Of a DNA stretch of 64,000 nt, positions 1-64,000 are shown piece after piece. Position 1 is the first letter of the stretch, and each line of letters begins with the position of its first letter. The stretch covers positions 12,152,001 through 12,216,000 of the forward strand of contig OZ024742.1 in NCBI GenBank assembly GCA_964016885.1, written 5' to 3'. This DNA comes from Eledone cirrhosa (taxonomy: Eukaryota). The notes beneath the pieces were generated by a model. It was not told where the DNA came from and ran no database searches. It saw nothing but the letters and a program-made list of their open reading frames with translations. The translations under genes were made by a program, and so were the position numbers.

Positions 1-872
1 TCTACTTTAATTGCCCTTTTCAGGGCGAACCACCACCTGTTGTTGACGCCCGCTGCCGTCAACGCCCGCTTAACTAATACGCTAATCCGGTCTCTGAAGG
101 TTTTGCGCGCCGGGAAAGACACGTTCATCTTCCAGTAACCAGGCCATTGTCTATGAAGTCTGTCTATATCGATCTCACAGATCACAAATTTGTGGTCTGT
201 GTAGTCGACTATTTTAAATTGTGGACAACTTATACTAGCCTTATCTAGTTCTTTGCAGAATACCCTATCGAGATTCGATCTGGATGACCCGATGCGGTTT
301 GTCCATGTCCACATTGGCACATTCGGGTGATCCAGTCGATACCTGTCAGACAGTTCAAAACGTCTGAGCAGGTTGGTGAGGCTCTTGCACCATCCTCCCC
401 TATCTACTAGCCCCACACGATCCCAGCGTGCATCCAAGATACCGTTCCAGTCGCCCACTAACACTAAAGAGTGGGACGTTCCAAGAAAGGTCTCTAGACG
501 TCTGAAGAAATCTGGCCGTCCTGCCCCTGTTGGGGCGTACACGGCTATTAGCCTGAAAGCATTGCATTCGCTGCCGGTCACGTACAGTACCACCGACTTA
601 CCTTCTGGGTCCAGGAAGATGGCCCGTATCGCGAGATCCAAGCCTCTCCGAAAAAGGACGGCAACCCCTCCCCCCGATCCTGGACAGCTGGGAGATGCGT
701 ATACATCGTAGCCGCCGAAGATCGGTGCGAAGGCTTGTGCTTCGGAGATTCTGGTTTCACTGATGGCCACCACATCTATGTTTAGTGACCTGAGGTCATT
801 GAGCAGGTGACCCTGCATCCAAGATGAGCCCAGGCCACGTGCATTTATACTGCCTATTCTGAGTACAGCCAT
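1..872 (-). CDS. Tx1/L1-clade LINE ORF2, N-terminal APE endonuclease (runs off the window edge)
   Basis: Manual translation from ATG at 872 is open to the edge: MAVLRIGSINARGL..DVVAISETR..LIAVYAP..GDWN..WTWTN..SNLDR..TDH..GYWKMN; collinear with ORF 37789-38661. Confidence 0.9.
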   Translation of the reverse strand, partial: MAVLRIGSINARGLGSSWMQGHLLNDLRSLNIDVVAISETRISEAQAFAPIFGGYDVYASPSCPGSGGGVAVLFRRGLDLAIRAIFLDPEGKSVVLYVTGSECNAFRLIAVYAPTGAGRPDFFRRLETFLGTSHSLVLVGDWNGILDARWDRVGLVDRGGWCKSLTNLLRRFELSDRYRLDHPNVPMWTWTNRIGSSRSNLDRVFCKELDKASISCPQFKIVDYTDHKFVICEIDIDRLHRQWPGYWKMNVSFPARKTFRDRISVLVKRALTAAGVNNRWWFALKRAIKV

Positions 873-879
873 GTTGGAT

Positions 880-2480
880 GAGAAACGGGACAAGTGAGAA
901 AGGGTCACCTACCTTGTTCGTGTGGTGAAGGGACAGTAGAACCGTCCCTTTCGCTGGTCATGTGTGTTTCCAAGAGGATGTCAGTGTATATCCTCTTTGT
1001 AACCGACCCTCTGAAGTCTCCAACTGCGTTGTGGAATTTTTGTTTTAAAGGTTTGTACTGTTCTATTGAGATTTCGATGATGCTTATGTTTGTCGGGAGA
1101 GTTCTTGGTGTTGGTGGGGTGTAGCAGTTTCTTTCTGTGATGTCTGTGTGCTGCTTTATATATTGTATGAGTTCTTTTTTGCCATGTTTATGGCTGTGTA
1201 CTTTTTGGCGGGAGGGGTGATTTTGTTGCTGTTTGGTGTGTGTGTCTTGTTGTTTTTGCGTTGTTGGTGTTTATGGTGGTGATGGTGGTGGTGTTGCTGC
1301 AAGTTTCCTTGCTGCCTTTACCCCTCTTTGTATGCCTTCGCTTTTGGAGGGTGAATCTAAGGGTTTTTTTTCTTTTTTTCTTTTTTGTGGCAGACCGTTT
1401 GCCACTTCACTCCCGCCTCAAACTCCATGTCGGATTCTGTGGCGTCTGGGAGGAGTATGTGCTCCACGGCTGTTGCTGGTGGTAGTGGAGCCATCTTCGG
1501 CAATTTTGTTGCTGGTGTAGCTACTTCAAATGGAGCTATTGGTGTTGCCGCTACTGATGATGCTGCTTTAGTTGTCCGTGGACTTGGTACGGGTGCTACG
1601 GACGTTTCCCTCCTACTCACCATGGAAGGGGCTTGTTGGTTTTTTTGTTTCCTGCCCTGCTCTTGGTAGCAGCGGACCAGGTATTGGAAGGAGAGGGGCC
1701 TTCTTCGCTGTCTTCTGACCCTTCGACCCACAGAGATAACATTTTGGCCGTCTTCCTTGTACACTTATAGGGAGTTGGAGTCCTTCCTCGATGTCTATGA
1801 TATCGGGGATAGCCTCGATACATTCCTGGTCAGTTTGTATAAGCATTTGCATGCCTATACCTGACCAATTCTCTCTCCCTATGTTTACTACTGGCAGCAG
1901 GGTCGCCCTGTTCTCGATTCCAGCAAGGACAGACGCGGCCAGCCAAGGTATGGGCACGTCGGGTGGGACCTGGGTCACTTTGACTCTCACAATTTTCTGC
2001 CCGCAGTAGGAGGGCACCAAGACTAACTCCTCACTCTTTAGGGTTTCCAAAGAGTGAGACTTTGCTTCCTGGGGGGTGGCGAAAAGTACGTCTACTGTGG
2101 CGTACTTTCTGCCTCGGGTGATGTGGGTTTTGCATGCCCAGACACACCCCAAGGCCTTTGGGATTTGAGCCTCTGTGGCTCTCTCCACTCGATGTGAGAT
2201 TTTGCTTACGGTGCGGTAAGTCACCGGCCGTAGCTGCTGGTCCTTGAAAAAATCGGGAGGAGGTTCCAGGGAACTCTATTTGCGCTTCTTGTCACCATGG
2301 CCCTTGCGACTGCCATCTCCTCCTCTGTGACTAACACTGTCTCGATATTTCGGGCGACACCTGCAAAAGAAGTGGTCCCTTTTTCAGCAGCACCACTATT
2401 GCTGCCGCTACTGGTCTTACTGGTGGTGCTGAGATCGCTATTACAGGTATCGGTTTCGTTGTTGTTTTCGTTGTTACAGT
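880..2480 (-). pseudogene. Tx1-like LINE ORF1 (gag-like, zinc knuckle), disrupted; 5' end lost at the junction with the Dong-like element
   Basis: ORF 1613-2224 aligns by eye with ORF1 36111-37334 (RGRKYATVDVLF/RGRQYGTISVLF; GRRPKCYLCG/GKRPQCFVCG; KAPLLP); has stops and frameshifts. Confidence 0.8.
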
Positions 2481-19426: not shown

Positions 19427-21389
19427 TTTTTTGTTCCCCGGTTCTAAGTGTCATTTCATGGTTTGTTATATCCCATTATTATTTAAAAAAACACTATTAT
19501 TTACTCAGAAGTTTGGGTTTGTGGTCAGGAGTTTGATATTTCGAAATTTTCATATTTTTCAAGAAAAAACACAATTTTTAAAAATTTAGCAGTTCATATA
19601 ATTAAATCAACAGAGTATATATTTATTTTATTACACAAGCTTATCAAAAGCAAACAAGTAAAAACAAATAACACTTATAAAGCAACTTATACACGTCAGA
19701 AATGACTGGATTTCCTGGATTTGCGGTTGTAGTCCAGGTCGCATTCCCGCACTAGCCCCCAGATAGAGTCCCCCATCATGTTTTCATTGTAGTGGCCCTG
19801 GTACCTCCACTCAATCTCTTTCACATCTTGGTGGAATCGTTCGCCTTGTTCTTCTGAGTAGGTGCCCATATTGTCCTTGAATTTTTCCAGGTGAGCGCCC
19901 AGCATATGGAGTTTAAGCGACACCCTGCATCCCATGGCGCCAAAAGCCTTTATCAAATCCTGCACCAGTTGATGGTAGTTTTCAGCTCTGTAGTTGCCCA
20001 GGAAGCCCTTAACAACTGCCCTGAAACAGTTCCATACTGTTCTCTCAATCCTATTGAGCTTATTGGAGAACTCGGTAGACTCAAACACCTTCTTTATCTG
20101 AGGCCCAACAAAAATTCCACCTTTGATTTTGGCCTCAGATAACTTGGGGAAGAACTCAAGAAGGTACTTAAAAGCAGCTGATTCTTGGTTGACAGCCTTC
20201 ACAAATTGCTTCATCAACCCCAACTTAATGTGCAGTGGCGGCATGAGCACAATCCTGGGATCAACCAGTGGCTCCCACATGACGTTCCGGGTCCCAACTA
20301 CACATTCTGTTCGCTGCTCCCATTTCTTTCTTTTGTAGTGGTCAGAGGTGGCTCTACTGTCCCAAAGGCAGAGGAAGCGTTGGAATTTGATAAAGCCTCC
20401 TTGAAGTCCAAGCAGGAAAGCCACCATCTTGAAGTCTCCAATGATTTCCCAATTGTACTGGTCGTATTGCAGAGCTTCCAAGAGGACTTTCACACAGTAG
20501 TAATTTTCCTTCAGGCAGACTGAATGAGCTAGGAGGAGTGTCGGGAACTTGTTTCCATTGTGGAGGAGGACAGCCTTCAAACTTGTGGTGGAGCTGTCTA
20601 TAAATAGCCGCCACTCCTTGGGCACAAACGGCACCCCAATAACGTCAAACAGTCTAGGCACGTCATGGCTGAAGCAGAGGCCATCCCTAGGAGTGTAAAA
20701 GCCTGAGAAAGGTTCGTGTCGACTTCTCTGACTTGTCACCTGCACTTCCTCCTTGACTAAGTTCCACTGATTCATCCTGGAGACGAATAGCTCTGCATTG
20801 GACTTGGTCAGACCCATATCCCTGACCAAGTCATTGACTTCTTTTTGGTTTGGGAAGTGAGGAACTTTTTCTGGTCCCTTAGGGAGGTAATCCAAGTCCT
20901 CAGCATCCATCTCCACCTCTTCATCAGAATACTTGTCTTGGAAAAAAAATTTGATATGCAATAGGAAATAAATATTGGAAAGGGAAATACATATTTAAAT
21001 AGTATAAAAGAACACTAATCATACTAATGAAAATTCGTGCTTAAAACACAACTTACCCTTTATTCAGGGTGCGAAAATCCAGTATCAATAAATCTCTTTA
21101 ATCCACTTTTTAACAATTTTATACTTTATTGCACTTTTATAATTTTCTTTATTTTATAATTTTAATTTAACCTGAAACATATATAAAAAAAAATCATTTA
21201 ACATAAGCAAATTAAACATACAACGTAAAATCCAGCATACAAATAATTCTAGTGAATAGCTTAGAATTTTTACAAACCCAAACTTTTAACTGTTTAATAG
21301 CACTTTTTTAATATTTATTTGGGACCTAAGCAACACAAAAGGGTGATTACAAGCCAGGAACAGAGAACAAATTTTTTTTTTAGACGGTG
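19427..21389 (-). mobile_element. Chapaev3-like (CMC superfamily) DNA transposon
   Basis: Minus-strand terminus CACCGTCTAAAAA at 21389 flanked by TTA; imperfect subterminal inverted blocks (tttgttc, a few bp to gttc; ctatta; agtttgggtttgt) at both ends; left tip missing. Confidence 0.75.
19696..20961 (-). CDS. Chapaev3-like DDE transposase core, stop-free for 421 codons, lacking the N-terminal Zn-binding region
   Basis: Motifs WRLFIDSS, LKAVLLHNGN, GDFKM, CLWDSR, PPLHIKLGLMKQFVKA, SEEQGERFHQD. Confidence 0.85.
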   Translation of the reverse strand: MHIKFFFQDKYSDEEVEMDAEDLDYLPKGPEKVPHFPNQKEVNDLVRDMGLTKSNAELFVSRMNQWNLVKEEVQVTSQRSRHEPFSGFYTPRDGLCFSHDVPRLFDVIGVPFVPKEWRLFIDSSTTSLKAVLLHNGNKFPTLLLAHSVCLKENYYCVKVLLEALQYDQYNWEIIGDFKMVAFLLGLQGGFIKFQRFLCLWDSRATSDHYKRKKWEQRTECVVGTRNVMWEPLVDPRIVLMPPLHIKLGLMKQFVKAVNQESAAFKYLLEFFPKLSEAKIKGGIFVGPQIKKVFESTEFSNKLNRIERTVWNCFRAVVKGFLGNYRAENYHQLVQDLIKAFGAMGCRVSLKLHMLGAHLEKFKDNMGTYSEEQGERFHQDVKEIEWRYQGHYNENMMGDSIWGLVRECDLDYNRKSRKSSHF

Positions 21390-24380: not shown

Positions 24381-24438
24381 TTATATTTATATTTATTAAA
24401 ATTATATATATATATATATATATAAATATATATATATA

Positions 24439-24599
24439 GTAATAATAATAAATTTGAAGACTAAAATCTTCCTCCGGTTGCAACGTTTTTTGAAATATCC
24501 ACTTCTGCGTTTACAGATTGACTTTGTTAGTTTCAGAAGATCCCGTTAAGGGTGAAAGCAGCGATTCTTTGCTTAAACTTTAATCTGTTATTTTAATAA

Positions 24600-24600
<1 letters not shown>
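24439..24600 (+). mobile_element. Internally deleted mini-copy of the 44.6-47.0 kb PLE; CAGAAGA-core HHR at 24529-24579
   Basis: 5' cap gtaataataataaatttgaagactaaaat fused to cttcctccggttgc..ttttaataa; (TA)n on both sides. Confidence 0.85.
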
Positions 24601-24657
<57 letters not shown>

Positions 24658-24670
24658 TTATTTATATATA

Positions 24671-24716
<46 letters not shown>

Positions 24717-45980: not shown

Positions 45981-46959
45981 TTGCACAAAACTTTCCTGTA
46001 TTACAGCCCCACGTTTTACCCTAACGGATAGCACGATCTATACGTGGATATTTTACGTCTTGATGTGGGAGCTAAGTATATGTTTTGTTTATTCCTTTAC
46101 TTATTTGCATAGGTAAGTATATATTACCCGTATATTTTGTGAAGGTATGTATACCTTCTCGTACGTATATTTGACTGTTATAGCGTATAATTTTTACATA
46201 TTCTGGTATTTAGGGTTTGGCTATGTGTATACGGGAATTTTGCGTCCGCGTGAGTGTGCAGGTTCGTACGTATGGTGGGTGTGTGTATATGTGTACTTCT
46301 TGTTTTAGTTGACTTACGTCTCCGAACATTCGTGTATTTATATGTAGGTATGCGTGTGCGCTTGTTATATACGTATTTATTTACTTATATACGTTTATAT
46401 AATTATTTATTTATTTGTACACAAGCATACACACACACACATATTTATATGTGCGTGGTTTTGTATACCCATGGTAAGGTTTTGCTTATGCTTGTGTATG
46501 TACGTATCTGTTTGCGTGTATGTATTTATTTGTTTCTATTACTTCTGTATTGTATTTATTTACTTTGTTCTTAACTCTGTAGCGGAGATTCATTTGGTCT
46601 CCTAGTTAGAATTTTAGTCTACGATTTCTGCTATACCATTTACGTGGTTTTGTCTTTGCGTGCTATTGTTCTCCACGCTCCACATATGACTTATTATCTT
46701 CGTTTTTTCGTTCATTGCCAGAGAACGTCTCTATGCACCACCTAAGAGAACATTAGTCTACGACCTCTTTTATACCATAATCGTGGTTTTGTCTTTGCGC
46801 GTAATTGTTTTTCACCGCTCCTATTAATGACGTATAATTCGTTTTTTCCCGTTCTTTGCCAGCGAATGTTTCCACGAACCAAAGTATCGTCTTCCTGTCT
46901 TCCTCCGGTTGCAACGTTTTTTGAAATATCCAGTTCTGCGTTTACAGATTGACTTTGTT

Positions 46960-47010
46960 AGTTTCAGAAGATCCCGTTAAGGGTGAAAGCAGCGATTCTT
47001 TGCTTAAACT
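46960..47010 (+). ncRNA. Type I hammerhead-like motif with variant core CAGAAGA (family D)
   Basis: agttt-CAGAAGA-t ccc gttaa ggg t-GAAA-gcag cgattct ttgc-TT-aaact; distal stem I acagattga/ttaatctgt. Confidence 0.75.
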
Positions 47011-47026
47011 TTAATCTGTTATTTTA

Positions 47027-47062
<36 letters not shown>

Positions 47063-47063
<1 letters not shown>

Positions 47064-47206
47064 TAATAATAATAAAATTGAAGACTAAAATCCAAAGAGG
47101 GCTCGATAAGGAAAATATATATCAAATATATGTTAGTTTCAGAAGATCCCGTTAAGGGTGAAAGCAGCGATTCTTTGCTTAAACTTTAATCTGTTATTTT
47201 AATAAA
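47063..47206 (+). mobile_element. Mini-copy of family D (cap plus HHR end)
   Basis: Cap 47063-47131 fused to gttagtttcagaaga..aataaa. Confidence 0.85.
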
Positions 47207-47231
47207 TATATATATAATATATATATATACA

Positions 47232-47287
<56 letters not shown>

Positions 47288-53235: not shown

Positions 53236-53385
53236 ATAATAATAAATTTAAAGACTAAAATCCAAAGAGGGCTCGATAAGGATAAATATATATCAAATAT
53301 ATAAGAATCGTAGAGGAAATATTTATTAAAATAACAGATTAAAGATTAATTCCGTTCATTGCCAGAGAACGTCTCTATGAACCAC
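53233..53385 (+). mobile_element. Rearranged family D fragment: cap, inverted 3' tip and 3' UTR piece
   Basis: Cap matches 47063-47131; tttattaaaataacagattaaag inverts the 3' tip; cgttcattgccagagaacgtctctatg matches 46709-46735. Confidence 0.8.
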
Positions 53386-53471
53386 TTACGACTTCTTTTG
53401 TTTTGAAAAAGATAAATTAAATGATAGGCGCCACAAAGAAAGCTTTAAGCGATACTCTGACCAACTCCAAG

Positions 53472-54740
53472 GACCGTCGTACCTTGTACTAAGCCCCGCC
53501 TGACTGCGCTGGAGCGTTTGCTCTTTCGCTTTTTGTGGAATGGACGCGCTCCGATGGTCAGGCGGTCCATCTGCTGTCAACACCCGCTATGTGGAGGGCT
53601 GGGTATGCCGTGACTGATGATGCGCAGACACGCGCTCAAGCTACGACATCTCCACCTCTTCCTCGACGGTACTCAGGTGTGGTCGCCGTTTGTTAGACGC
53701 TTCTTTCCCCAGCTCGTCTCCTTGACGGAGTTGCAGTACTGGGTCAAGCGAAGACCGAGAGGGAGCGCTCGGAGACTGGACTGTCTTCAGGCGCTCACAG
53801 CCCTCGACTAATCGGGCAGTGTGATCGGTGGAAACTCCACCTTGGCGTTCTATAGAGGATTAGTGGGAGAGCGACGACGTACTTGGGGAAACTCTAGGCG
53901 TCGACGAAAGTCAACTAGCCAATCTGTTCGGCAGAACTTTCGGGCCGGGGCCTATGGACAACTTCCAGAAATCCCTGGCCTGGCAGTGCTACCAAGGAGC
54001 TTTGCCAGTTCGGGATAAACTCTACAGACATGGAGGTGCCGTCAGCCGGGCATGTCCAAGATACGCGCAGAGCGACGAGACCGTCCTGCACGCACTCGTC
54101 CAGTGTCCGAAAATTGCTGACTTGTGGGTTTATGTCGAACACCTGCTGTCGCGTGTAGGACGGATCCAGCTATCAGCTGAGTCCATCGTGAGGATTGCCC
54201 CGCCCTCTTCCTTTAGCCGGGAAGTGCAGGCAGTTTTTATCTGTCTGGTGGCCATGGCGAAAGAGATAGTATGGTGGACACGTTTGAAAGGGCTGAAGAC
54301 GAGCACTTACCTCTTCGGCGATGTCCTGATTAACTTTTTCAAATTTCATTTGAAAAGGAAAATCAGGGTAGAGAGGGAAGTGCTCTCTTCCCAGCATTTT
54401 GTTGAAAGATGGGTGAGAGAAGCAAGTATGGCCCGAGTGAATGGGCCTACTCTGAGTATGTGTCTGTAAATTAAATGTGGAAAACTGGGAGAGGGCACTT
54501 GCCCTGGTGGTCAGGGTAACTGTGGCTTTTTAATGGGCTTTTTCCACGTTGTCCCTCGGAAGTCTCCCCCCTATTGGGGAATTTTTTCATTGTTCTATTA
54601 TTACATCCTCTGTTTTTTGTTTTTTTTACACGCAGAAATGCCCTTTACACGCAGAAATGCCCTTTTGTACCGTCCTGTATTGTCCTGTACTGTCCTTAAT
54701 GTCTACTTTGTGTAAACCCTTGTGGTTAATAAAGAAAGCA
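53472..54740 (+). mobile_element. Tx1-like LINE 3' half (post-RT ORF2, zinc-binding region, 3' UTR), followed by (TTA)n(TAG)n
   Basis: TVVPC..FRFLWNG..GGLGMP; ALPVRD..CPRY..ETVLHALVQC. Confidence 0.9.
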
Positions 54741-54771
54741 TTATTATTGTTATTATTATTATTATTATTAT

Positions 54772-54815
<44 letters not shown>

Positions 54816-55019
54816 ATAACATGTTTCAAATTTTACAAATGACACATCGTTATGATAGAGACATGTATCGTAATATTTGTTCCTCTCCTGGCAGAGATCT
54901 CAGTAAATGTTAAATACGTAAAACAAATAGTGTTTCTTGTGGCTGTTAGGAATATTTCATGAAGGAAGAATGTTACGTATTCCGTATACGCAATTCTACA
55001 TGTCATCAGGATATACAAT

Positions 55020-55925
55020 AAATATGTGTGGACGTGTGAATGGGAATGTGTTTGTGTATGTGTATGAATGTGTGAGTTTGTGAATGTGTATGTGTATGAA
55101 TGTGGGAGTGTGTGTGTGTGTGTGTGTATATATGAATGTGTATAAATGTGTGACTGTGAGGAGTGCGTATGTGTATGAATGTGTAACAATATGTTTGTGT
55201 GAGTGTGTATGACTATGAATGCGTAGAAACGTGTATGTGAAAGTGGGTATGTATATTAATGTGTAGCAATATGTATGTGTGTCTATGTGTGTGAATAGGT
55301 AGCAATATGAATGTGTCTATGTGTGGGCATGTTTAGCAATATGTATGTGTTTGTGAATGTGTGAGTGTGTGGATGTTTGTGTAAGTCTAAGTATGTATGG
55401 ATGTTTTGAAGGTTGGAAACGCGAGTGTGCACTTGTGTGTATGTGTGTGTATGTGTATGTGTGTGTATGTGTATGTGTGTGTATGTGTGTGTATGTGTGG
55501 TTATATGTGTGTTATGTGTGTAACTGGGGGAGTAATATAAACAGGATTGTTTGTGTGATAAATCTTGTTGGAGGGTGGGGTGGTCGGTGTGATGGTGTGG
55601 AGTGGGGTGGAGTGAGCAGGGGTGTAGTAAAGTAGGTGGGGTGGAGTGAGGAGGGTGGAGTGACGTAGGGTGGGTGGAGTGAAGAGGGTTGGAGTGGAAA
55701 GGGATGGGGCGGATTAGAGGGGTGGAGTGAAGTGGGGTGGGTGGTGTGAGAGGCTGGAGTGAAGTTGGGTGGGGTGGAGTGAGGAGGGTGTAGTGGGGTG
55801 GAGTGGAGTGGGGTAGATTGGAGTGAGGAGGGGTGGAGTGAAGGGGTTGGAGTGGAGTGAAGTGGGGTGGAGTGAGGAGGGGTGGAATGAAGTGGGGTGG
55901 GAGTGTGGTGCGATGGGTGTGGGGT
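55020..55925. repeat. TG-rich low-complexity tract followed by a G-rich (GGAGT/GGGGT)n tract (55572-55925)
   Basis: Seen directly. Confidence 0.9.
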
Positions 55926-56048
55926 GACGCAGGGCAATCTTTTACGATCACAAAATTCTATGTGAGCATTGTAATAGTTTTATAGGATGTAAAGGAAGAC
56001 AACTATGTGAAGGTATGTATGGTTTTAACAGAGAGATAGACAGATAGA

Positions 56049-56084
<36 letters not shown>

Positions 56085-56104
56085 TCTATCTATCTATCTA
56101 TTTA

Positions 56105-56198
<94 letters not shown>

Positions 56199-56714
56199 AT
56201 ATATATATGTATATATATATCGAATTATTCTCACACTTTGAAATTGCCAGCCAAAAACCGGGGGTTACTTCCCTTGTTGGAAATAACACGTGACAAGAAA
56301 GACAGAATGCTGTCTATTGTAGTAGTCGTCCATAGTTGCAGTTCAAACCGGCTTGAGGCATAGAACGTAATACCCGTCAATGGCGTGAATCCCCTGTTCG
56401 ATTATAGAATACCACAAGTATTACGTAAGTTGGATTGATGATATCGGATTTCAAATAAACATATCGGACCTATTGCAGAATATCGTTCGATTTGTCCAGA
56501 TCTGTTGTTTAATCTGATTAGTTTTTTCGTTGTTTTGGTATTGTATGGCTGGGTTTTACCTCCCGCAATTTTCAATTTGTCAAGCTGTCTAAACGTATGT
56601 TATTACTCAAAGGCCCTACCTTATTGAGTGCTTCGATTTTACTAAGCTTATATATATATATATATATATATATTTCGTTTCTGAATTTGTTTAGCAAGAT
56701 TCTTTATCTGAAAA

Positions 56715-57890
56715 CGTGTGTTGAAACCGATATTGTTATACTTTGGGAGGGTCATGTTGCCAATAAGAAACACACGCACCAGTGTTTCACTTCAATTTAT
56801 TATAAATTAAATTTATAAATTTAGGAATTTATAAATTTCCGGTTGGTTGGTTCCACAACCAGACGATTGTTCATATATTATCAAAGTTCTTATATAGAAA
56901 GAACTAGGAATAAGGTTAATAGAATAAACTCATGGTATGATAGCAATAAATACCAAAGTGAATGTTCATCGATACAACCCCTAGAGGTGAATTAGCTTAC
57001 ACATTTAGAAGGGCCCTAGATAAACATAAACTCAATATTAAGATAGTAGAAAGACCAGGTACCGCCATAAAAACACTTATTAGCAATATATACCCTTTTC
57101 AAAGACCTCTCTGTATAGATAAGAAATGTATAATCTGTAAATTAAGGCCCCATATTAACTGTAAAACTAGAAATGTAGTATATAGCATAAGATCTACTGA
57201 AGGACAATATAGAGATAAGAATATAGTGTAGATAGGTGAGACAGCTCTTAGTATAGGGGAACGGATAAATGAAAACTGGCGAGAGCTTCAAGATAGTAAA
57301 GAATCATCTGTACTCCACCAACATGCTAAAATAGAACATAGGTGTAAATTAGAGAACAGAAATAAAAATAGAATCAAGACACAGTAAAGGCGCGATGTTT
57401 AGACAAATCACAGAGGCAATAAACATAAATGAACTCCAACCAAAATTAAATAGAAAACATGAATGGAACAGCAACATCACAACTTACAATTACGGACAAA
57501 ATGAAAACACACACACACATAGAACAAACAACCAACCAGTAACATGTAAATAAACAAATAAATAAACAAATATAAACACACACAGACACCCGGATGTAAC
57601 ACATGCGCAAACTAAGCACACAACACACACAAAAACAAGATGGCGTAGGACAGAACAAAGGAGAGGCACAAAAATAAAGAAAAGAATAGCCAGTCACTGA
57701 AGAGGTCACAGAATGTGTGACGAAATAATTTTGACAATATATGAACAATCGTCTGGTTGTGGAACCAACCAACCAACCGGAAATTTATAAATTCCTAAAT
57801 TTATAAATTTAATTTATAATAAATTGAAGTGAAAGCGATTGGTGCGTGTGTTTCTTATTGACAACATGACCCTCCCAAAGCATAACAATA
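56715..57890 (+). mobile_element. Penelope-like element (Cys-linker GIY-YIG type), 5'-truncated with inverted pLTR; HHR at 57693-57735
   Basis: FIDTTPRGEL, VERPG, CIDKKCIIC..CKTRNVVY, IGET; 56730-56885 inverts 57730-57890; gtca-CTGAAGA-g gtcaca gaatg tgtgac-GAAA-taat-TT-tgac. Confidence 0.85.
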
Positions 57891-58900
57891 TATGGTTGTC
57901 GTACCATGATGTGGCTTTCCCTATCTTATGTCTAGCCCTATCTAAGCTATTCCATGATTTGCTCCTGTATAGTGGGCAAATTCCTTTCATGTCTAGTTCT
58001 ATGAGGGTTTTATACTTTTCCATGGCTCCTTCGTATACTCTGACTCTGTCTCTTTGGTTGTAGCCAGAGAACTGCATGCGGTTGATGAAATGTTGGATGT
58101 GTCTTTCCATTTCTGTTGGGTCGCACATGCTGGACACATTCTTCATCACTCGTACCAAATCTGCGATCAGAATATTAAACTTAGCACTACTGGACATTGC
58201 TGAGTTTTTGAGTATCAGGTATTTGGAGGCCATGGGTTTAGCATAGTGTGAGTGGAGAATTTGGGCTCCCTCGTCTATAGTGTTAATCCAGAGTTCTGTG
58301 TCTAATACAGGTAGTCTATTGTTAGGGTGTTTGGAAGGGATAAAATAAAATAAAATAAGATAAATAAATACATACACAAGCACAATAACAACAAGCACAT
58401 AAACACACACTAGTCACCCAGCAGACACAACACTATACACACTAGTCACACAACACACACAACACTGTACACACACGCAAACGCATGCGCAAACGCATGC
58501 GCAAACAAACAAGCAAATAAATAAATAAATATATAGACAGACTGAATAAAAAATGGCGTAGACATACAACACAACAGGAGAAAAAATATAACACCACTGA
58601 CGATGTTGCAGATGTGCAACGAAAGATTTATGTAAATTATGTAAACTATATATATGCGTTTGTGTCTATATTGTATCTGTATTATTTTTGACCGTCGGTC
58701 AGTGAATGGCAACATTGAGGACCGATTAAGTTAGATCGCATATATAAAAGACAGCGAGAAGCGAAAACCAACCAAACAGTGAGTGTGTTCTGTTATTAAT
58801 TCTGGCAATATTACACAAATATGACCCTCCCCAAGTATAACAATATTTGTTTCGACACACGATTTCATATAAAAAACCTCGCTAAACTAATTCATCGCCG
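57891..58900. mobile_element. Second related PLE: inverted RT-thumb segment (57891-58340, minus) plus 3' pLTR (58340-58900, plus) with decayed HHR near 58593-58634
   Basis: LPVLDTELW..HYAKPMAS..SAMS..MQFSGY..PLYR; CTGACGA-t gttgca gatg tgcaac-GAAA. Confidence 0.8.
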
Positions 58901-58933
<33 letters not shown>

Positions 58934-58938
<5 letters not shown>

Positions 58939-59170
58939 TAAAATAACAGATTAAAGTTTAAGCAAACAATCGCTGCTTTCACCCTTAACGGGATCTTCTG
59001 AAACTAACAAAGTTAATCTGTGAACACAGAAGTGAATATTTCAAAAAACGTTGCAACCGGAGGAAGACAGGAAGACGATACTTTGGTTCGTGCAAACGTT
59101 CCCTGGCAAAGAACGGGAAAAAACGAATATAATACGTCATTATTTGGAGCGGTGACAAAAGACAAAACCT
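58934..59170 (-). mobile_element. Family D 3' end; CAGAAGA HHR at 58955-59005
   Basis: Reverse complement of 46785-47030. Confidence 0.88.
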
Positions 59171-59174
59171 CGTT

Positions 59175-62100
59175 ATATGTATTATATCTATTTATATGTT
59201 ACACACTTTATTGTGTTGTATCAGATGAAAGAATGGTATTTAACTAATGTATTGGTACGCGATGGGGCCCACCCACAGCCCCGGCGGACAGAATGGAGAA
59301 GGCATTTCCCGGGAGGACGGCAAGGGAGACGCGCTGGAAAAGCCACTCCAACTCGCGGGGTTCACACCTACGGCTGGCCAGTTCAGCGCCTATGGTGGTG
59401 AGTAAGGAGGTAGCCCTGGGGTCGAGGACACCAGAAGTTTCCACTGCCAGGGGAACGACCTCAAACCTGGCGGAGAGCGACCGGTATTTGAGGAGTTTGG
59501 CCCCCTCAGCTCGACGAGCAGCAGGTTGCGGCTGCAAAAAGTGTCGGTGCAAGTGGCATCCCAGACGAGAGGTTTGCCACCGCAAACGGGAAGATGGTCA
59601 TGCCATCTGGCCTTTTGCCGTCCCCTCGATCCAGCCCCACCGGCTCGAGCTGGGAAGGGAATCCTGCAGCGTCCAAGCCATGCTTAATGACCTCGTTGAG
59701 GGCAGTATGGCGTGGAATGCGGCTGGCACTGTGGGGACAGGAAAGCGGGTGGAGGCCGAAAGAGTCCACGGTGAAACCGCAGCGACATTGGTGTGGTTGG
59801 CAAATCCGGAGGCCGAGCCTCAGGGAAACGCCGATTCGCAGGCTATGGTTGTCTAGCTGCGTGCCAGTGGAGAAGGAGGGCAGAGCATGGAGCCAGGCAC
59901 CACTTTGGGGTTTGGATGCCGCACGAAAACAATCGAGGCGGTGCTGGTCGAGCTGGCGCGTGAGCCTGTCTGAGGCCAGGCTGCACAGGATGGCACCCTA
60001 AGTGCGTTTGGGAGACTTGAGGTCAACAGGGAGAGAAGGAGGAGGGACGTCTACTGGGCTAAGTCCCAGCCGGTCCCACGTCTCACAGGCGGCCTCACGT
60101 TCTCTGAACACAGAGGGTTCTGTTGTGTTTTGAAGAACCCTGCTGACGAGGACGCGGCACGAGGTTACCGACGAAAGTTACGCCGGCAAAGCTAGTGAGA
60201 TCGGGGACCGGAGGCCTAGGCCACCATACCTGACCGGTAAAGTGGCCTGTTGCCACCCTATGTCGTCAAACTTGACGTTGCATATCCCCTCGGCTGCTGC
60301 TCGGATACAAGTATCGAGGTCAGCGAGGAAAGATGTCTGGGTGTAGCATGGAGCGCTGCGGGGTGTATAGAGGAGCTTCGGCATGGCGAAACAGTTCCTC
60401 AGCAGAAAGAGAGCTGGGTGGCCGTCAATCAAGCCCAGTCGGCTCGTGAGAGGCTGGAGCTGTTGAAGCCTGGACCTGATGGTGGAGCGGATGGCCGGCG
60501 AGTGCATCGGTGACCCGAGGATGAGGACATCCTCTTTGGGGGTCACCTGAACCTGTCGGAGAATGGACCGCACGTCCAAGACGGAGGCTGCAAAGCTCGC
60601 AGCATCGAGGCTGACGTTCACCATCTCCGACTTGGCCGAGTTGACCTGAAGGCCGATTCCCGCCAGGGCAGGAATCACCGATTGAAGGTCTTGGCAGACT
60701 GTCCGTACGGGCCCGCCCAACGTAGCATCATCCAGATACCAGACGTTGAGAGGGGCCATGATACTCCGGGCGATGTGTTCAATACCAAGGGCGAACAGGA
60801 GGGGTCCTAAAGGGTCGCCCTGTTGGACCCCAGTAGCCAAGGGTATGACCGTATCAGCAGCTAGGAGCATGCTGGGGGCTCCATATGACAGGTAGGCCAG
60901 CGGGTAGGCAGAGGGGGCTCGGCTGAAGCAGACCTCGAGCAGATGATCCCGGCGTAAAGAGTTAAAGGCATTCCTCATGTCAAGCTTGACAATGAGGTGC
61001 CTGGAGTCCCTGGATGCCGGTACCGATTGGCAGCTGCTGAAGAACTGCCTGATTGCATGAGAGGCTCCCTCACAGCCACCGGACACGCCGACACCCAGTT
61101 GCACCGGACTAAACTCCTCACCCAGTTCGTGTGTGACGGACTTGCAGATCACCTTGGCAGCCAGCCTCCGGAAGACATTGCCCAAAGAAATGGGGCGTAT
61201 GCCACCCTCTTTCTTCCTGAGAGCGGTGAGTCTGGCCGAAAAAAAGAGACCTAAGGCGTAAGGGTCGAGGGCACCACGAATGCGCCTATTGGTGAGCACC
61301 ACAATTGCACTCAGAAGGCGGCGCCCGGCCTCAGCGGTGAGGGGGATGTCAACTCCTTGAGGTGGCTTGTTCTGAGACCATCAACACCTCCACAGCTGCT
61401 AGCTGGGAAGGACCTGATGGCGGACATGATATCTGCATCAGTAGCTACAAGGAGCAGGTGGGGGTCGGGTGGGGGTATGGGTCTGAGATCAGTGGGAAGC
61501 TCGGGGTGTTTGAGCTGCAGAGCAGCCAGGATCTCCTCGGTGGGTTGGAGGACAGTGTCCTCTGAGGCAACACCTCTGACTGCGGCCAATACATCACCCA
61601 TGATAAGCTTTGTGTTTACCTGGTCACGCAAACGCTTGGCGTCGGCCTCGGGGGTGGAAGATAGGGGGTACCTGAGGGTGGGGTGTGTGGCGTCCCTGGG
61701 CACGCTTGTAATGGGCGCTCGCCCAAATGACGAGACATTGTCCTTGACGAAGGCTGCTGTTGACCGGCCGCCCCGGTCAGAGCCAGAGCTGGGGAGGCCG
61801 AGGGCTAGTGGAGCGAAATAGAACAGCCGCTCCCAGTCACTGGCTCGATTGGAGTCAAGGGCGCTTTCAATCGAGGAAGCGAGGGTATCGGTTACCGGCA
61901 CCCGTGCCGCTCTCGGGATCCTGAGTGAGATCTTCCGGAGCCGCCTAAGCCAAGCGATGTTGACCAGCGAGGCTCGGGTGTCAGGCAAGCTCGCTGTCCC
62001 ATCTGGTGGTGTGCCAGACGGCCGTGGCTGGGAAGACGTGGGGAAGAGGCAGCTCCTGCACCTCCACGCTGCGAGGACATTGGAAGCTCGACGAGCCAAG

Positions 62101-62320
62101 CCAACGCAGGTGAGATGGTGGAAGCAGCCGCACCACAAACAGTTCCGGCCCCTCTTCCGTTTGCTAGTGGTGCCGCAAATGCTGCAGGTGTCGATTTGGA
62201 AGGGTGGGGGATGGGGCGTGGGGCCGGGGACTGGGGCACCGAGCGGCATCAGGGGTGGGTGGCTGGTGTGTGTGGTTGGAAGGGAAAGTGGTGGTAAGAG
62301 GGCAGCATAGCTCACCTATA
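59175..62320 (-). mobile_element. CRE-clade-like RLE non-LTR retrotransposon with N-terminal PHD finger; GC-rich, few lesions
   Basis: GGVDGLR, KKEGGIRPI, QLGVG, LDMRNAFN, GVQQGDPLGPLLF, WYLDD, GGLGL, C..GLHPLSC..RH, RPDG, KYRSL..PLAVETSG. Confidence 0.88.
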
Positions 62321-62809
62321 TATATGGAGGTGCCAGAAAACGAGAGCGAAAAGGGGCTGCATGGAGGGGGAGACACAGGAAGGTAGAATGGCAGTAAATG
62401 AATGAGTTAATGGATGGATGTACACACAAAAAAAAGGAGGGGGGGGGGAACAAGGGGTTGTTTCCAGCGCAAAGACCCAGAGTTCAGCACACCCACATGC
62501 GAGCAGTTTGTCAAAGACGATATTCTCAATGGACGCGCTTACAATATTTGAATATAACTGAACCGTCTTGTCATTTAATTTGAAAAGTGGAGCAAAGTAA
62601 AAGGAATATAGTGAATTTGGAGTGTCAATCCCTTGAGATTTTTTTTTTTTTTTTTTTTTTTCCAATACCGAACTTACAGTTTTCCAGGATTTGTACTCAT
62701 TCTTTTTTTTTTTCCTTCAAAAGGATGGAGGCGTTTTATCTCCTCATGAAACTGCCATTACTTAATGATGTTCGTCATCTATGGCTTATTCATATGTATT
62801 ATTTCATAA

Positions 62810-62912
62810 AAATCCCGCCGATTAACTTTGCCTTTCATCCTTGTGGGGTCGATAAAATAAAGTACCAGTAATGTACTGGGTAATTGCTAGCCTTGTGCCT
62901 AACGTAGAAACA
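62810..62912 (+). mobile_element. SINE 3' half
   Basis: Central domain and 3' end. Confidence 0.85.
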
Positions 62913-63233
62913 ATTATTTCATAACTCTATAGAATGTTTGTGCAGTGTTCTGTGTCCAGCCAGGTTTGTACAACAGGTAAGAAAAATGATGATTCGGTGA
63001 CGGTTTCTTCTGATAGGAACCTCTTCCACGTCGGAAGATCGAAGTGTGTTTTCTTGTCTTCTTCAATACTTTCATAAACGGCTTCGGAGATTTAAAACTT
63101 GTTTCAATTGGTGCTTCCATTTCCACACGGTTCTATTGTCTTATTTACAAAAATATATATTTCTATATATTTCTTTATTTATTTCTCTTCTTTTAGTATA
63201 ATATAGCGAGTTGTCACCAGTGATGTTTGAAGT

Positions 63234-64000
63234 TCAGGCGATAGTAGATGACAGACGCGATGTACGCGTTAGCCACCTCCGCTCGACCTTTCAGGGATAG
63301 CTTCCCCTCCGCCCATTTCTGGGTGAGAGAAACCACACTGCTCGTCACTTCGTCCCAGTTTTTGGCCGCCTGGAGGTCCGGAGCGAACCAGACCCCTAGC
63401 AATTTAACCGGTCCATCCGTCCAGCGCCCGACCACGCTGTTGGATGGCATGGACCTGCCTCTCCAGGTGCCGAGCTGCAGGCCCACTGACTTTTCCTGGT
63501 TGATCATTGCTCCTGTCACCGCTTCGTATTCTCTTAGTGTAGTGCCGATCACCTCGATGTGTTTGGCGTTCGACACCACTACGGTGAAATCGTCCGCATA
63601 TGCTGACACGGATCTTCCGCATCCTAGTTCGCGCGGGACCCCCCTCAAAGTCTCCAGATTGTACAGTAATGGCTCGAGAGTCAATACGTACTAGAGGGAC
63701 GAGAGGGGACATCCTTGGCGGACCGAGCGCATGATGTTGAACGGTTCCGAAAGGTGACCGTTCACTCTCACCACAGAGCAGATGTCGCTGTGCATGGCAG
63801 CGATCCAGCCTCTGAAGACCGGCCCAAAGCCAGCCACCCTCAGGACTGCGGCTAGCTAACTATGGTCGACACTATCGAAAGCTTTCGACTGATCTAAATT
63901 GATCAAGGACCCACTCGTGCCAGATTCCCTAGCTACCCTCTCTACGATGTATCGCATGAGGTGGAGGTTGTCGTGGATGGATCTGTCGGGAATGGCGCAC
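63234..64000 (-). mobile_element. Tx1-like LINE RT domain fragment (defective), continuing beyond the window
   Basis: LDQSKAFD, SVRQGCP, SAYADD, VKLLGV, LSLKGR..IYYRL. Confidence 0.9.

Follow-up and report, generated by a model that had tools for sequence, protein, structure and literature searches.

Human chromosomal inversions provide the closest described parallels to the rearrangement considered here. In the available parts of one Pettersson-type series, 8 of 13 resolved inversions carry NHEJ/MMEJ signatures, with blunt or short-microhomology joins, and one of them, inv(1)(p13q25) of P4855_207, combines a 0-bp deletion with 2-bp microhomology at both junctions (PMC7702065). The 9.76-kb inversion described here resembles these balanced human NHEJ/MMEJ inversions, and P4855_207 in particular, in its reciprocal junctions, 0-bp deletion and 2-bp microhomology, and also in that a break falls inside a retrotransposon, which in P4855_207 is an L2b remnant (PMC7702065). 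Unlike the inversions of that series, as far as its accessible text describes them, the present one is 9.76 kb long and not cytogenetically visible, affects no known gene and was deduced by comparison with paralogous repeats, not from a reference allele (PMC7702065). A similar likeness extends to TEMR-NHE events (PMC9675761) and to L1-associated, non-recombination inversions between human and chimpanzee (PMC2603318), for which the sections available likewise report breaks in retrotransposons and microhomology of less than 5 bp, and propose a two-break repair; the median microhomology in non-homologous TE-breakpoint events is given as 1 bp (PMC9675761). Those cases concern L1 or Alu, usually with both ends in one family or with an element at one end only, whereas here a Tx1-like element is joined to a CRE-like one of a different group (PMC9675761, PMC2603318). 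A search of the octopus literature for retrotransposon inversions with microhomology returned no match.

The window (G000:C3:12152001-12216000; the whole 64,000-nucleotide stretch that was analysed, to which all coordinates refer) comes from an animal genome assembly of 3.0 Gb in 1796 contigs; it is crowded with microsatellites and retrotransposon remnants, and contains no N. In it a minus-strand RT frame reaches IYYRL and then runs into unrelated sequence, while a plus-strand frame past 53473 opens with TVVPC. From these two frames a first-pass annotation had proposed a 9.76-kb inversion, with a GA shared by both breakpoints that it took as consistent with end joining. The letters are as it had reported them, namely GA at 53472-53473, TC at 63234-63235, the IYYRL end and the TVVPC start. 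To see if the halves adjoin each other in intact copies, we searched the genome with each half and aligned each separately, building no join. The features concerned are:

53474..63233: inverted segment, 9,760 bp; reciprocal contiguity in paralogues, no N in the window
53472..53473, plus strand: breakpoint 1, GA overlap
63234..63235, minus strand: breakpoint 2, with an overlap that reads GA on this strand (TC on the plus strand)
63236..64000, minus strand: 5' part of the Tx1-like LINE (RT), extended for 3.7 kb past the window by the APE endonuclease and then ORF1, up to a complete 5' end that lies within (ATT)n near L041:4712
53474..54739, plus strand: 3' part of the Tx1-like LINE, comprising the ORF2 end with zf-RVT and the 3' UTR; stops and a frameshift
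54740..54815, plus strand: (ATT)n(TAG)n tract next to the 3' end of the Tx1-like LINE
53398..53473, plus strand: 5' non-coding leader stub (76 bp) of a 5'-truncated CRE-like copy, left of breakpoint 1
59180..63233, minus strand: CRE-like body, with the rest of the leader (63233-62316), a broken PHD-RT-RLE ORF (62315 to about 59250) and AATAAA (59212-59207)
62810-62918, minus strand: SINE piece in the CRE-like leader
53251..53399, plus strand: left-hand piece of R3, a small interspersed repeat, with 53251-53349 an arm from the repeat's far end in reversed orientation and 53350-53399 lying ahead of the CRE-like insertion
58930..59180, minus strand: right part of R3, resuming past the CRE-like 3' end
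54825..55034: 210 bp, the only sizeable stretch inside the inversion for which the search found no further copy (the 1 candidate of 1 was itself)
55035..56195: simple repeats
56649..58932: presumed Penelope-like RT/endonuclease remnant with reversed arms; no Pfam hit, 40 scored of 6679 candidates

The Tx1-like halves follow directly on each other in all 38 paralogue loci (19 found by the 5' half and 19 by the 3' half, the locus itself being excluded both times), and the continuous IYYRLTVVPC that the annotation had obtained by flipping the segment is read naturally in an intact neighbour copy (locus L043). At the two junction bases 24 of these paralogues have GA and 14 have AA. Halves belonging to different subfamilies had been named beforehand as grounds against an inversion; both sort with the GA group, which the 5' half matches at 3/4 diagnostic sites and the 3' half at 18/23, an imperfect sorting in that the AA-group state is seen at the other 1/4 and 5/23. 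Furthermore, divergence from the GA-group majority state is 26/764 (3.4%) against 35/996 (3.5%), with no asymmetry between the halves. These comparisons support the assignment of both halves to the same apparent subfamily. Read across the break, the LINE is full length, with ORF1, APE and RT in order, and is damaged by stops and frameshifts. The label Tx1, which the first-pass annotation had used as well, is a putative one. It fits the anatomy, an ORF1 followed by an ORF2 with APE, RT and a C-terminal zinc-binding domain, and the (ATT)n flanks, which suggest a microsatellite target preference: the 3' end could be found in 35 of the 38 paralogue loci, with ATT runs next to it in nearly all, and here such a run also precedes the 5' end. 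Among Tx1-clade elements, Kibi in (TC)n and Koshi in (TTC)n are likewise APE-RT copies lying in a simple repeat; the tract here differs in being (ATT)n, whether as target or as tail, and the likeness is one of anatomy, as judged against the available text (PMC4494074).

The reciprocal join tells the same story for an unrelated element. Of 19 second-element loci that were fetched, two matched a flanking repeat only; among the remaining 17, 15 are contiguous across the reciprocal break (14 with GA and 1 with AA), and in the other two the site is affected by small deletions, after which the same downstream sequence follows. To the right of the join, 5 of 10 extended paralogues align for about 4 kb to window positions 63235-59220. 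Together with the Tx1-like loci, these counts bear out the size and breakpoints first proposed, and the comparison with paralogues confirms that, as assembled, 9.76 kb of repeat DNA lies flipped, halving two unrelated retrotransposons. The ORF of the second element has a Pfam RVT_1 match over the cut-off and a PHD match below it, and its closest named homologue is an annotated SLACS protein (45% identity, E 1.7e-97, rank 15 among 120 listed). Its RLE gave no Pfam hit, and we take it to be present from a reading by eye of C/H and PD motifs. On that reading the element has the CRE-group organisation of one ORF with a non-LTR RT and a C-terminal RLE, and no APE. The paralogues are variably 5'-truncated; AATAAA and a mostly A-rich tail are found at all 19 paralogous 3' ends, the 3' flanks differ among the 19 with no common target seen, and a search for a target-site duplication of the copy at this locus found none. 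The evidence supports its identification as a putative CRE/SLACS-like PHD-RT-RLE non-LTR retrotransposon. RLE elements of the CRE group, to which SLACS belongs, share with it the single ORF, the RT, the C-terminal RLE-like region and the lack of an APE; differences from the group, as it is described in the part of the source available, are the non-coding leader of about 1.5 kb, the weak PHD finger and an apparent absence of a common target at the 19 paralogous 3' ends (PMC4640811). Projected onto an intact copy of 4.5 kb, the break falls about 650 nt inside the 5' end, and alignment to paralogues places the reciprocal join in the non-coding 5' leader.

This placement runs against the decayed BEL/Pao integrase that the first-pass annotation had inferred at the reciprocal join. 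The read-through on which it relied exists as a stop-bounded frame of 35 codons, but no other copy shares its ATG, which is present in 0 of the 16 paralogues where the site could be located. We rejected an integrase frame, given that Pfam and PDB searches at E 10 gave nothing for the natural frame of the paralogues, that this frame is stop-bounded and that the ATG is a private mutation. A BEL/Pao LTR element was rejected as well: no terminal repeat appears in the pairwise alignments shown, and the variable 5' truncation, AATAAA and A-rich tails are those described above. Neither an integrase-coding frame at the join nor long terminal repeats with a gag-pol order were found, and the one match from a family search of the genome for BEL/Pao was weak, to a Pao peptidase, and lay on a different contig.

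A third repeat is split in the same manner. The two parts of R3 (53350-53399 on the plus strand and about 59180-58930 on the minus strand) are contiguous in 13 of 14 paralogues, which indicates that the CRE-like copy was inserted into R3; the parts line up only once the inversion is undone. An Rfam search of R3 and both flanks found no ribozyme, the only matches being to low-complexity miRNAs below gathering scores. It could be argued that there was no inversion at all, and that two independent insertions or truncations merely look reciprocal by accident, with a BEL/Pao fragment at one join; a 26-residue peptide that the first-pass annotation took as loosely like an integrase helix speaks for this. 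That peptide is the stop-bounded one with the private ATG, unmatched in Pfam and PDB at E 10, and three separate repeats (Tx1-like, CRE-like and R3) rejoin on flipping the segment, so that we regard the argument as hardly credible. Likewise, the abutting halves in paralogues, each half having been aligned separately, show that the reciprocal appearance is not due to chance.

The junctions resemble those of balanced end-joining inversions in several respects: two reciprocal novel junctions accompany the flipped orientation, the microhomology lies within 0-4 bp with no long homology at the breaks, and insertion, deletion and duplication are absent relative to GA-type paralogues. Measured against these paralogues (24/38 for Tx1, 14/15 for the CRE-like element), the number of bases added, lost or duplicated at the junctions is 0, and hence apparently no base was lost at the breaks. 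If the parental Tx1 copy had AA, the overlap would be 1 bp plus one changed base. The shared GA widens the interval that may have been inverted from 53474-63233 up to 53472-63235. We infer both the polarity and the balance of the inversion from the paralogues, no uninverted allele of the locus having been seen.

The overlap itself was found as first described, and is consistent with end joining, as was said then, but it weighs little as evidence. An apparent overlap of at least 2 bp occurs in 15.8% of random position pairs drawn from both elements and in 13.2% near the breaks; random joins overlap by 0-3 bp in 56, 28, 11 and 4% of cases, respectively. Given that an overlap of this kind is expected by chance in 13-16% of joins, GA says little on mechanism and is compatible with blunt joining too. 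One junction pair cannot identify the repair pathway, and the overlap cannot separate blunt joining from the use of microhomology. We think it likely that the inversion goes back to two double-strand breaks whose ends were exchanged and then sealed by non-homologous end joining.

Replication template switching (FoSTeS/MMBIR), in which a fork jumps strands at a 2-bp match, copies backwards and returns, would also account for short microhomology at both junctions, and MMBIR was assigned to 5 of the 13 resolved human inversions in the available account of that series (PMC7702065). No templated insertion or copy-number change is seen at either junction; templated insertions, duplications and deletions, all lacking here, are what that series uses as its criteria for MMBIR (PMC7702065), and two switches would be needed at exactly reciprocal bases. 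We consider template switching improbable. Somewhat less probable still are two Spo11-type meiotic cuts with a 2-nt stagger and the same overhang, 9.76 kb apart, whose ends were ligated in swapped orientation. Two identical 2-nt overhangs would give precisely the observed footprint, and SPO11 leaves 2-nt 5' overhangs; in mouse germ lines, end joining takes place between cuts made at pairs of hotspots separated by 5 and 15 kb (PMC13532658). However, exactly 2 bp of overlap already occurs in 10.6% of random joins, and a single event cannot show staggered cutting. Moreover, in the mouse experiments, as far as the available text relates, unresected ends were joined with little microhomology and gave rise to deletions, whereas an insert in inverted orientation required resection (PMC13532658).

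The location of both breaks within retrotransposons might suggest that inverted repeats recombined ectopically through their homology, or that an element-encoded site is cut recurrently, and inversions mediated by L1 and Alu are described as common in primates in the sections seen of two surveys (PMC2603318, PMC9675761). The two elements here are unrelated, and homologous inverted repeats are missing from the breaks: within 300 bp, nothing in inverted orientation scored above AT-repeat matches at E 0.27. This lack of inverted homology excludes ectopic recombination in our assessment. As for a recurrent cut site, the breaks lie outside the (ATT)n that Tx1-like copies target and neither junction recurs in the genome searches, the left being found once among 27 matches and the right once among 40 scored of 52 candidates (both lower bounds). 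Taken together, the two possibilities are assigned a very slight probability.

An assembly artefact, in which the assembler or chimeric reads turned the segment round, has to be weighed in a region that is nearly all repeats. Of the public runs, 17 were listed, none of them with half of the query words and no RNA run among them. The two junction read checks together covered 6 different runs of the 17, and no bridging read or contig was among the pieces listed for these: against four runs each, there was no bridge among the 24 pieces shown of 41,321 for the right junction or the 24 shown of 848 for the left. Runs X1 and X3 are, however, without the private letters of this copy at 62755, 63019, 63332 and 63383, and depth was zero in all four left-junction runs at the older insertion boundary, 53396-53402. 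With these other private marks of the locus missing too, the sampled runs seem not to contain the locus, and they neither confirm nor refute the junctions. The assembly has two reciprocal, base-exact joins in unrelated repeats, without a gap, and no inverted repeat that could confuse an assembler. A chimeric read yields one novel junction, not a reciprocal pair. Judged by structure alone, an artefact is very unlikely.

The remaining content of the segment is also repetitive. About 78% of it matched repeats (among the fetched loci) or simple repeats, and much of the remainder (56670-57720) is the high-copy remnant that we call Penelope-like, a label presumed from its peptides. No host gene was recognised among 10 window ORFs run against Pfam (of 71 of at least 120 aa), which gave transposable-element domains or nothing, a search that short exons or a long intron would escape. 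PDB and Atlas searches gave generic RT matches only, and long ORFs across 30 kb of fetched neighbours look retrotransposon-like. Because almost all local DNA is repeats, the retrotransposons were probably merely the substrate of the breaks. The inversion is likely to be neutral.

Under the end-joining explanation that we prefer, the order of events may be reconstructed as follows. R3 would have inserted first and the CRE-like copy then into R3, while a Tx1-like copy presumably inserted independently 9.8 kb away on the other strand. The inversion would be the last event, occurring between a break in the Tx1-like ORF2 and a break in the CRE-like 5' leader; it may have arisen once, in a germ line. 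Both parent elements probably carried GA, which would have made the exchange loss-free, and blunt or 2-nt compatible ends could have been ligated with little processing.

One consequence is a new arrangement of the minus strand, which now reads from the Tx1 promoter through ORF1, APE and RT into the CRE-like leader, the RT-RLE ORF and its 3' end. Dualen/RandI elements, which combine APE and RLE in one element, are superficially similar in that an APE-RT followed by an RT-RLE and a 3' end lies here in one orientation; in contrast to them, as described in the text available, the present arrangement consists of two broken ORFs parted by a 0.9-kb leader, exists in one copy and has no sign of mobility (PMC4640811).

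The inversion is likely an ordinary break-repair accident of an already described kind, and on its own a short inversion within repeats that is probably neutral matters little. What the locus illustrates is that high-copy repeats act as an internal outgroup, giving base-exact breakpoints, polarity and the order of events without a second genome. Used genome-wide, this could measure the rates of small inversions and the lengths of their overlaps in a repeat-rich animal, and would thereby put 2-nt staggered cuts to the test. If cuts of the Spo11 type did produce the inversion, split retrotransposons would reveal germ-line inversions, their polarity and the overhang length from one assembly, and the placing of an APE-type and an RLE-type LINE in one transcription direction would be a possible raw step towards dual-endonuclease elements.

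Examination of the CRE-like retrotransposon, the second of the two elements split by the inversion, reveals a SINE-like repeat in its non-coding leader, which is among the further features of the window:

62810-62918: SINE-like repeat in the CRE-like leader
53251-53399 and 58930-59180; also 46676-47236 and 24411-24710: repeat R3, the small interspersed repeat that at the first two intervals flanks the CRE-like insertion
19696-20994, minus strand: open frame of 432 amino acids

The SINE-like repeat occupies the same leader position in many CRE-like paralogues (L022-L024, L026, L028, L033, L035 and L039), where its length varies and where two or three copies are in some cases arranged in tandem. 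It is missing from that site in the paralogues L025, L029-L032, L036 and L037: either insertion has recurred at this specific sequence, or the repeat belonged to one subfamily from the start. The small public read run X4 (88 million letters) yields an unbroken 470-nt contig of the leader without the SINE.

In the loci L044-L053 and L090-L108, the CRE-like family displays an unusually long leader of about 1.5 kb and short sequences of varied kind between the AATAAA and the A-rich tail, with neither a target site nor a TSD seen. Candidate 3' ends of the family number in the thousands across the genome (3563). R3 has one arm reversed and is surrounded by (TA)n tracts, thereby resembling the two-armed Penelope-type insertions of the same genome; an Rfam search of it found no ribozyme.

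The 432-residue frame, which had no match in a Pfam search, is presumably a DNA-transposon-derived protein. Within the inversion, 210 bp of single-copy DNA (54825-55034), in which no function was seen, could serve as a PCR anchor.

Tx1-like copies are clustered (window 63236-64000; 4712-10000 of L041, which continues the window rightward; L043; window 1-2275), and several of them are found left of the window. A second copy lies head to tail past the 5' end of the split Tx1-like LINE and shares its (ATT)n tract; an (ATT)n context appears to be common to two related families. Contigs of intact Tx1-like sequence are also present in X4. Among L002-L020, the paralogues with AA at the junction are near-identical copies, whose 5' half differs by about 1% from the majority state; they form a young subfamily, possibly with recent activity.
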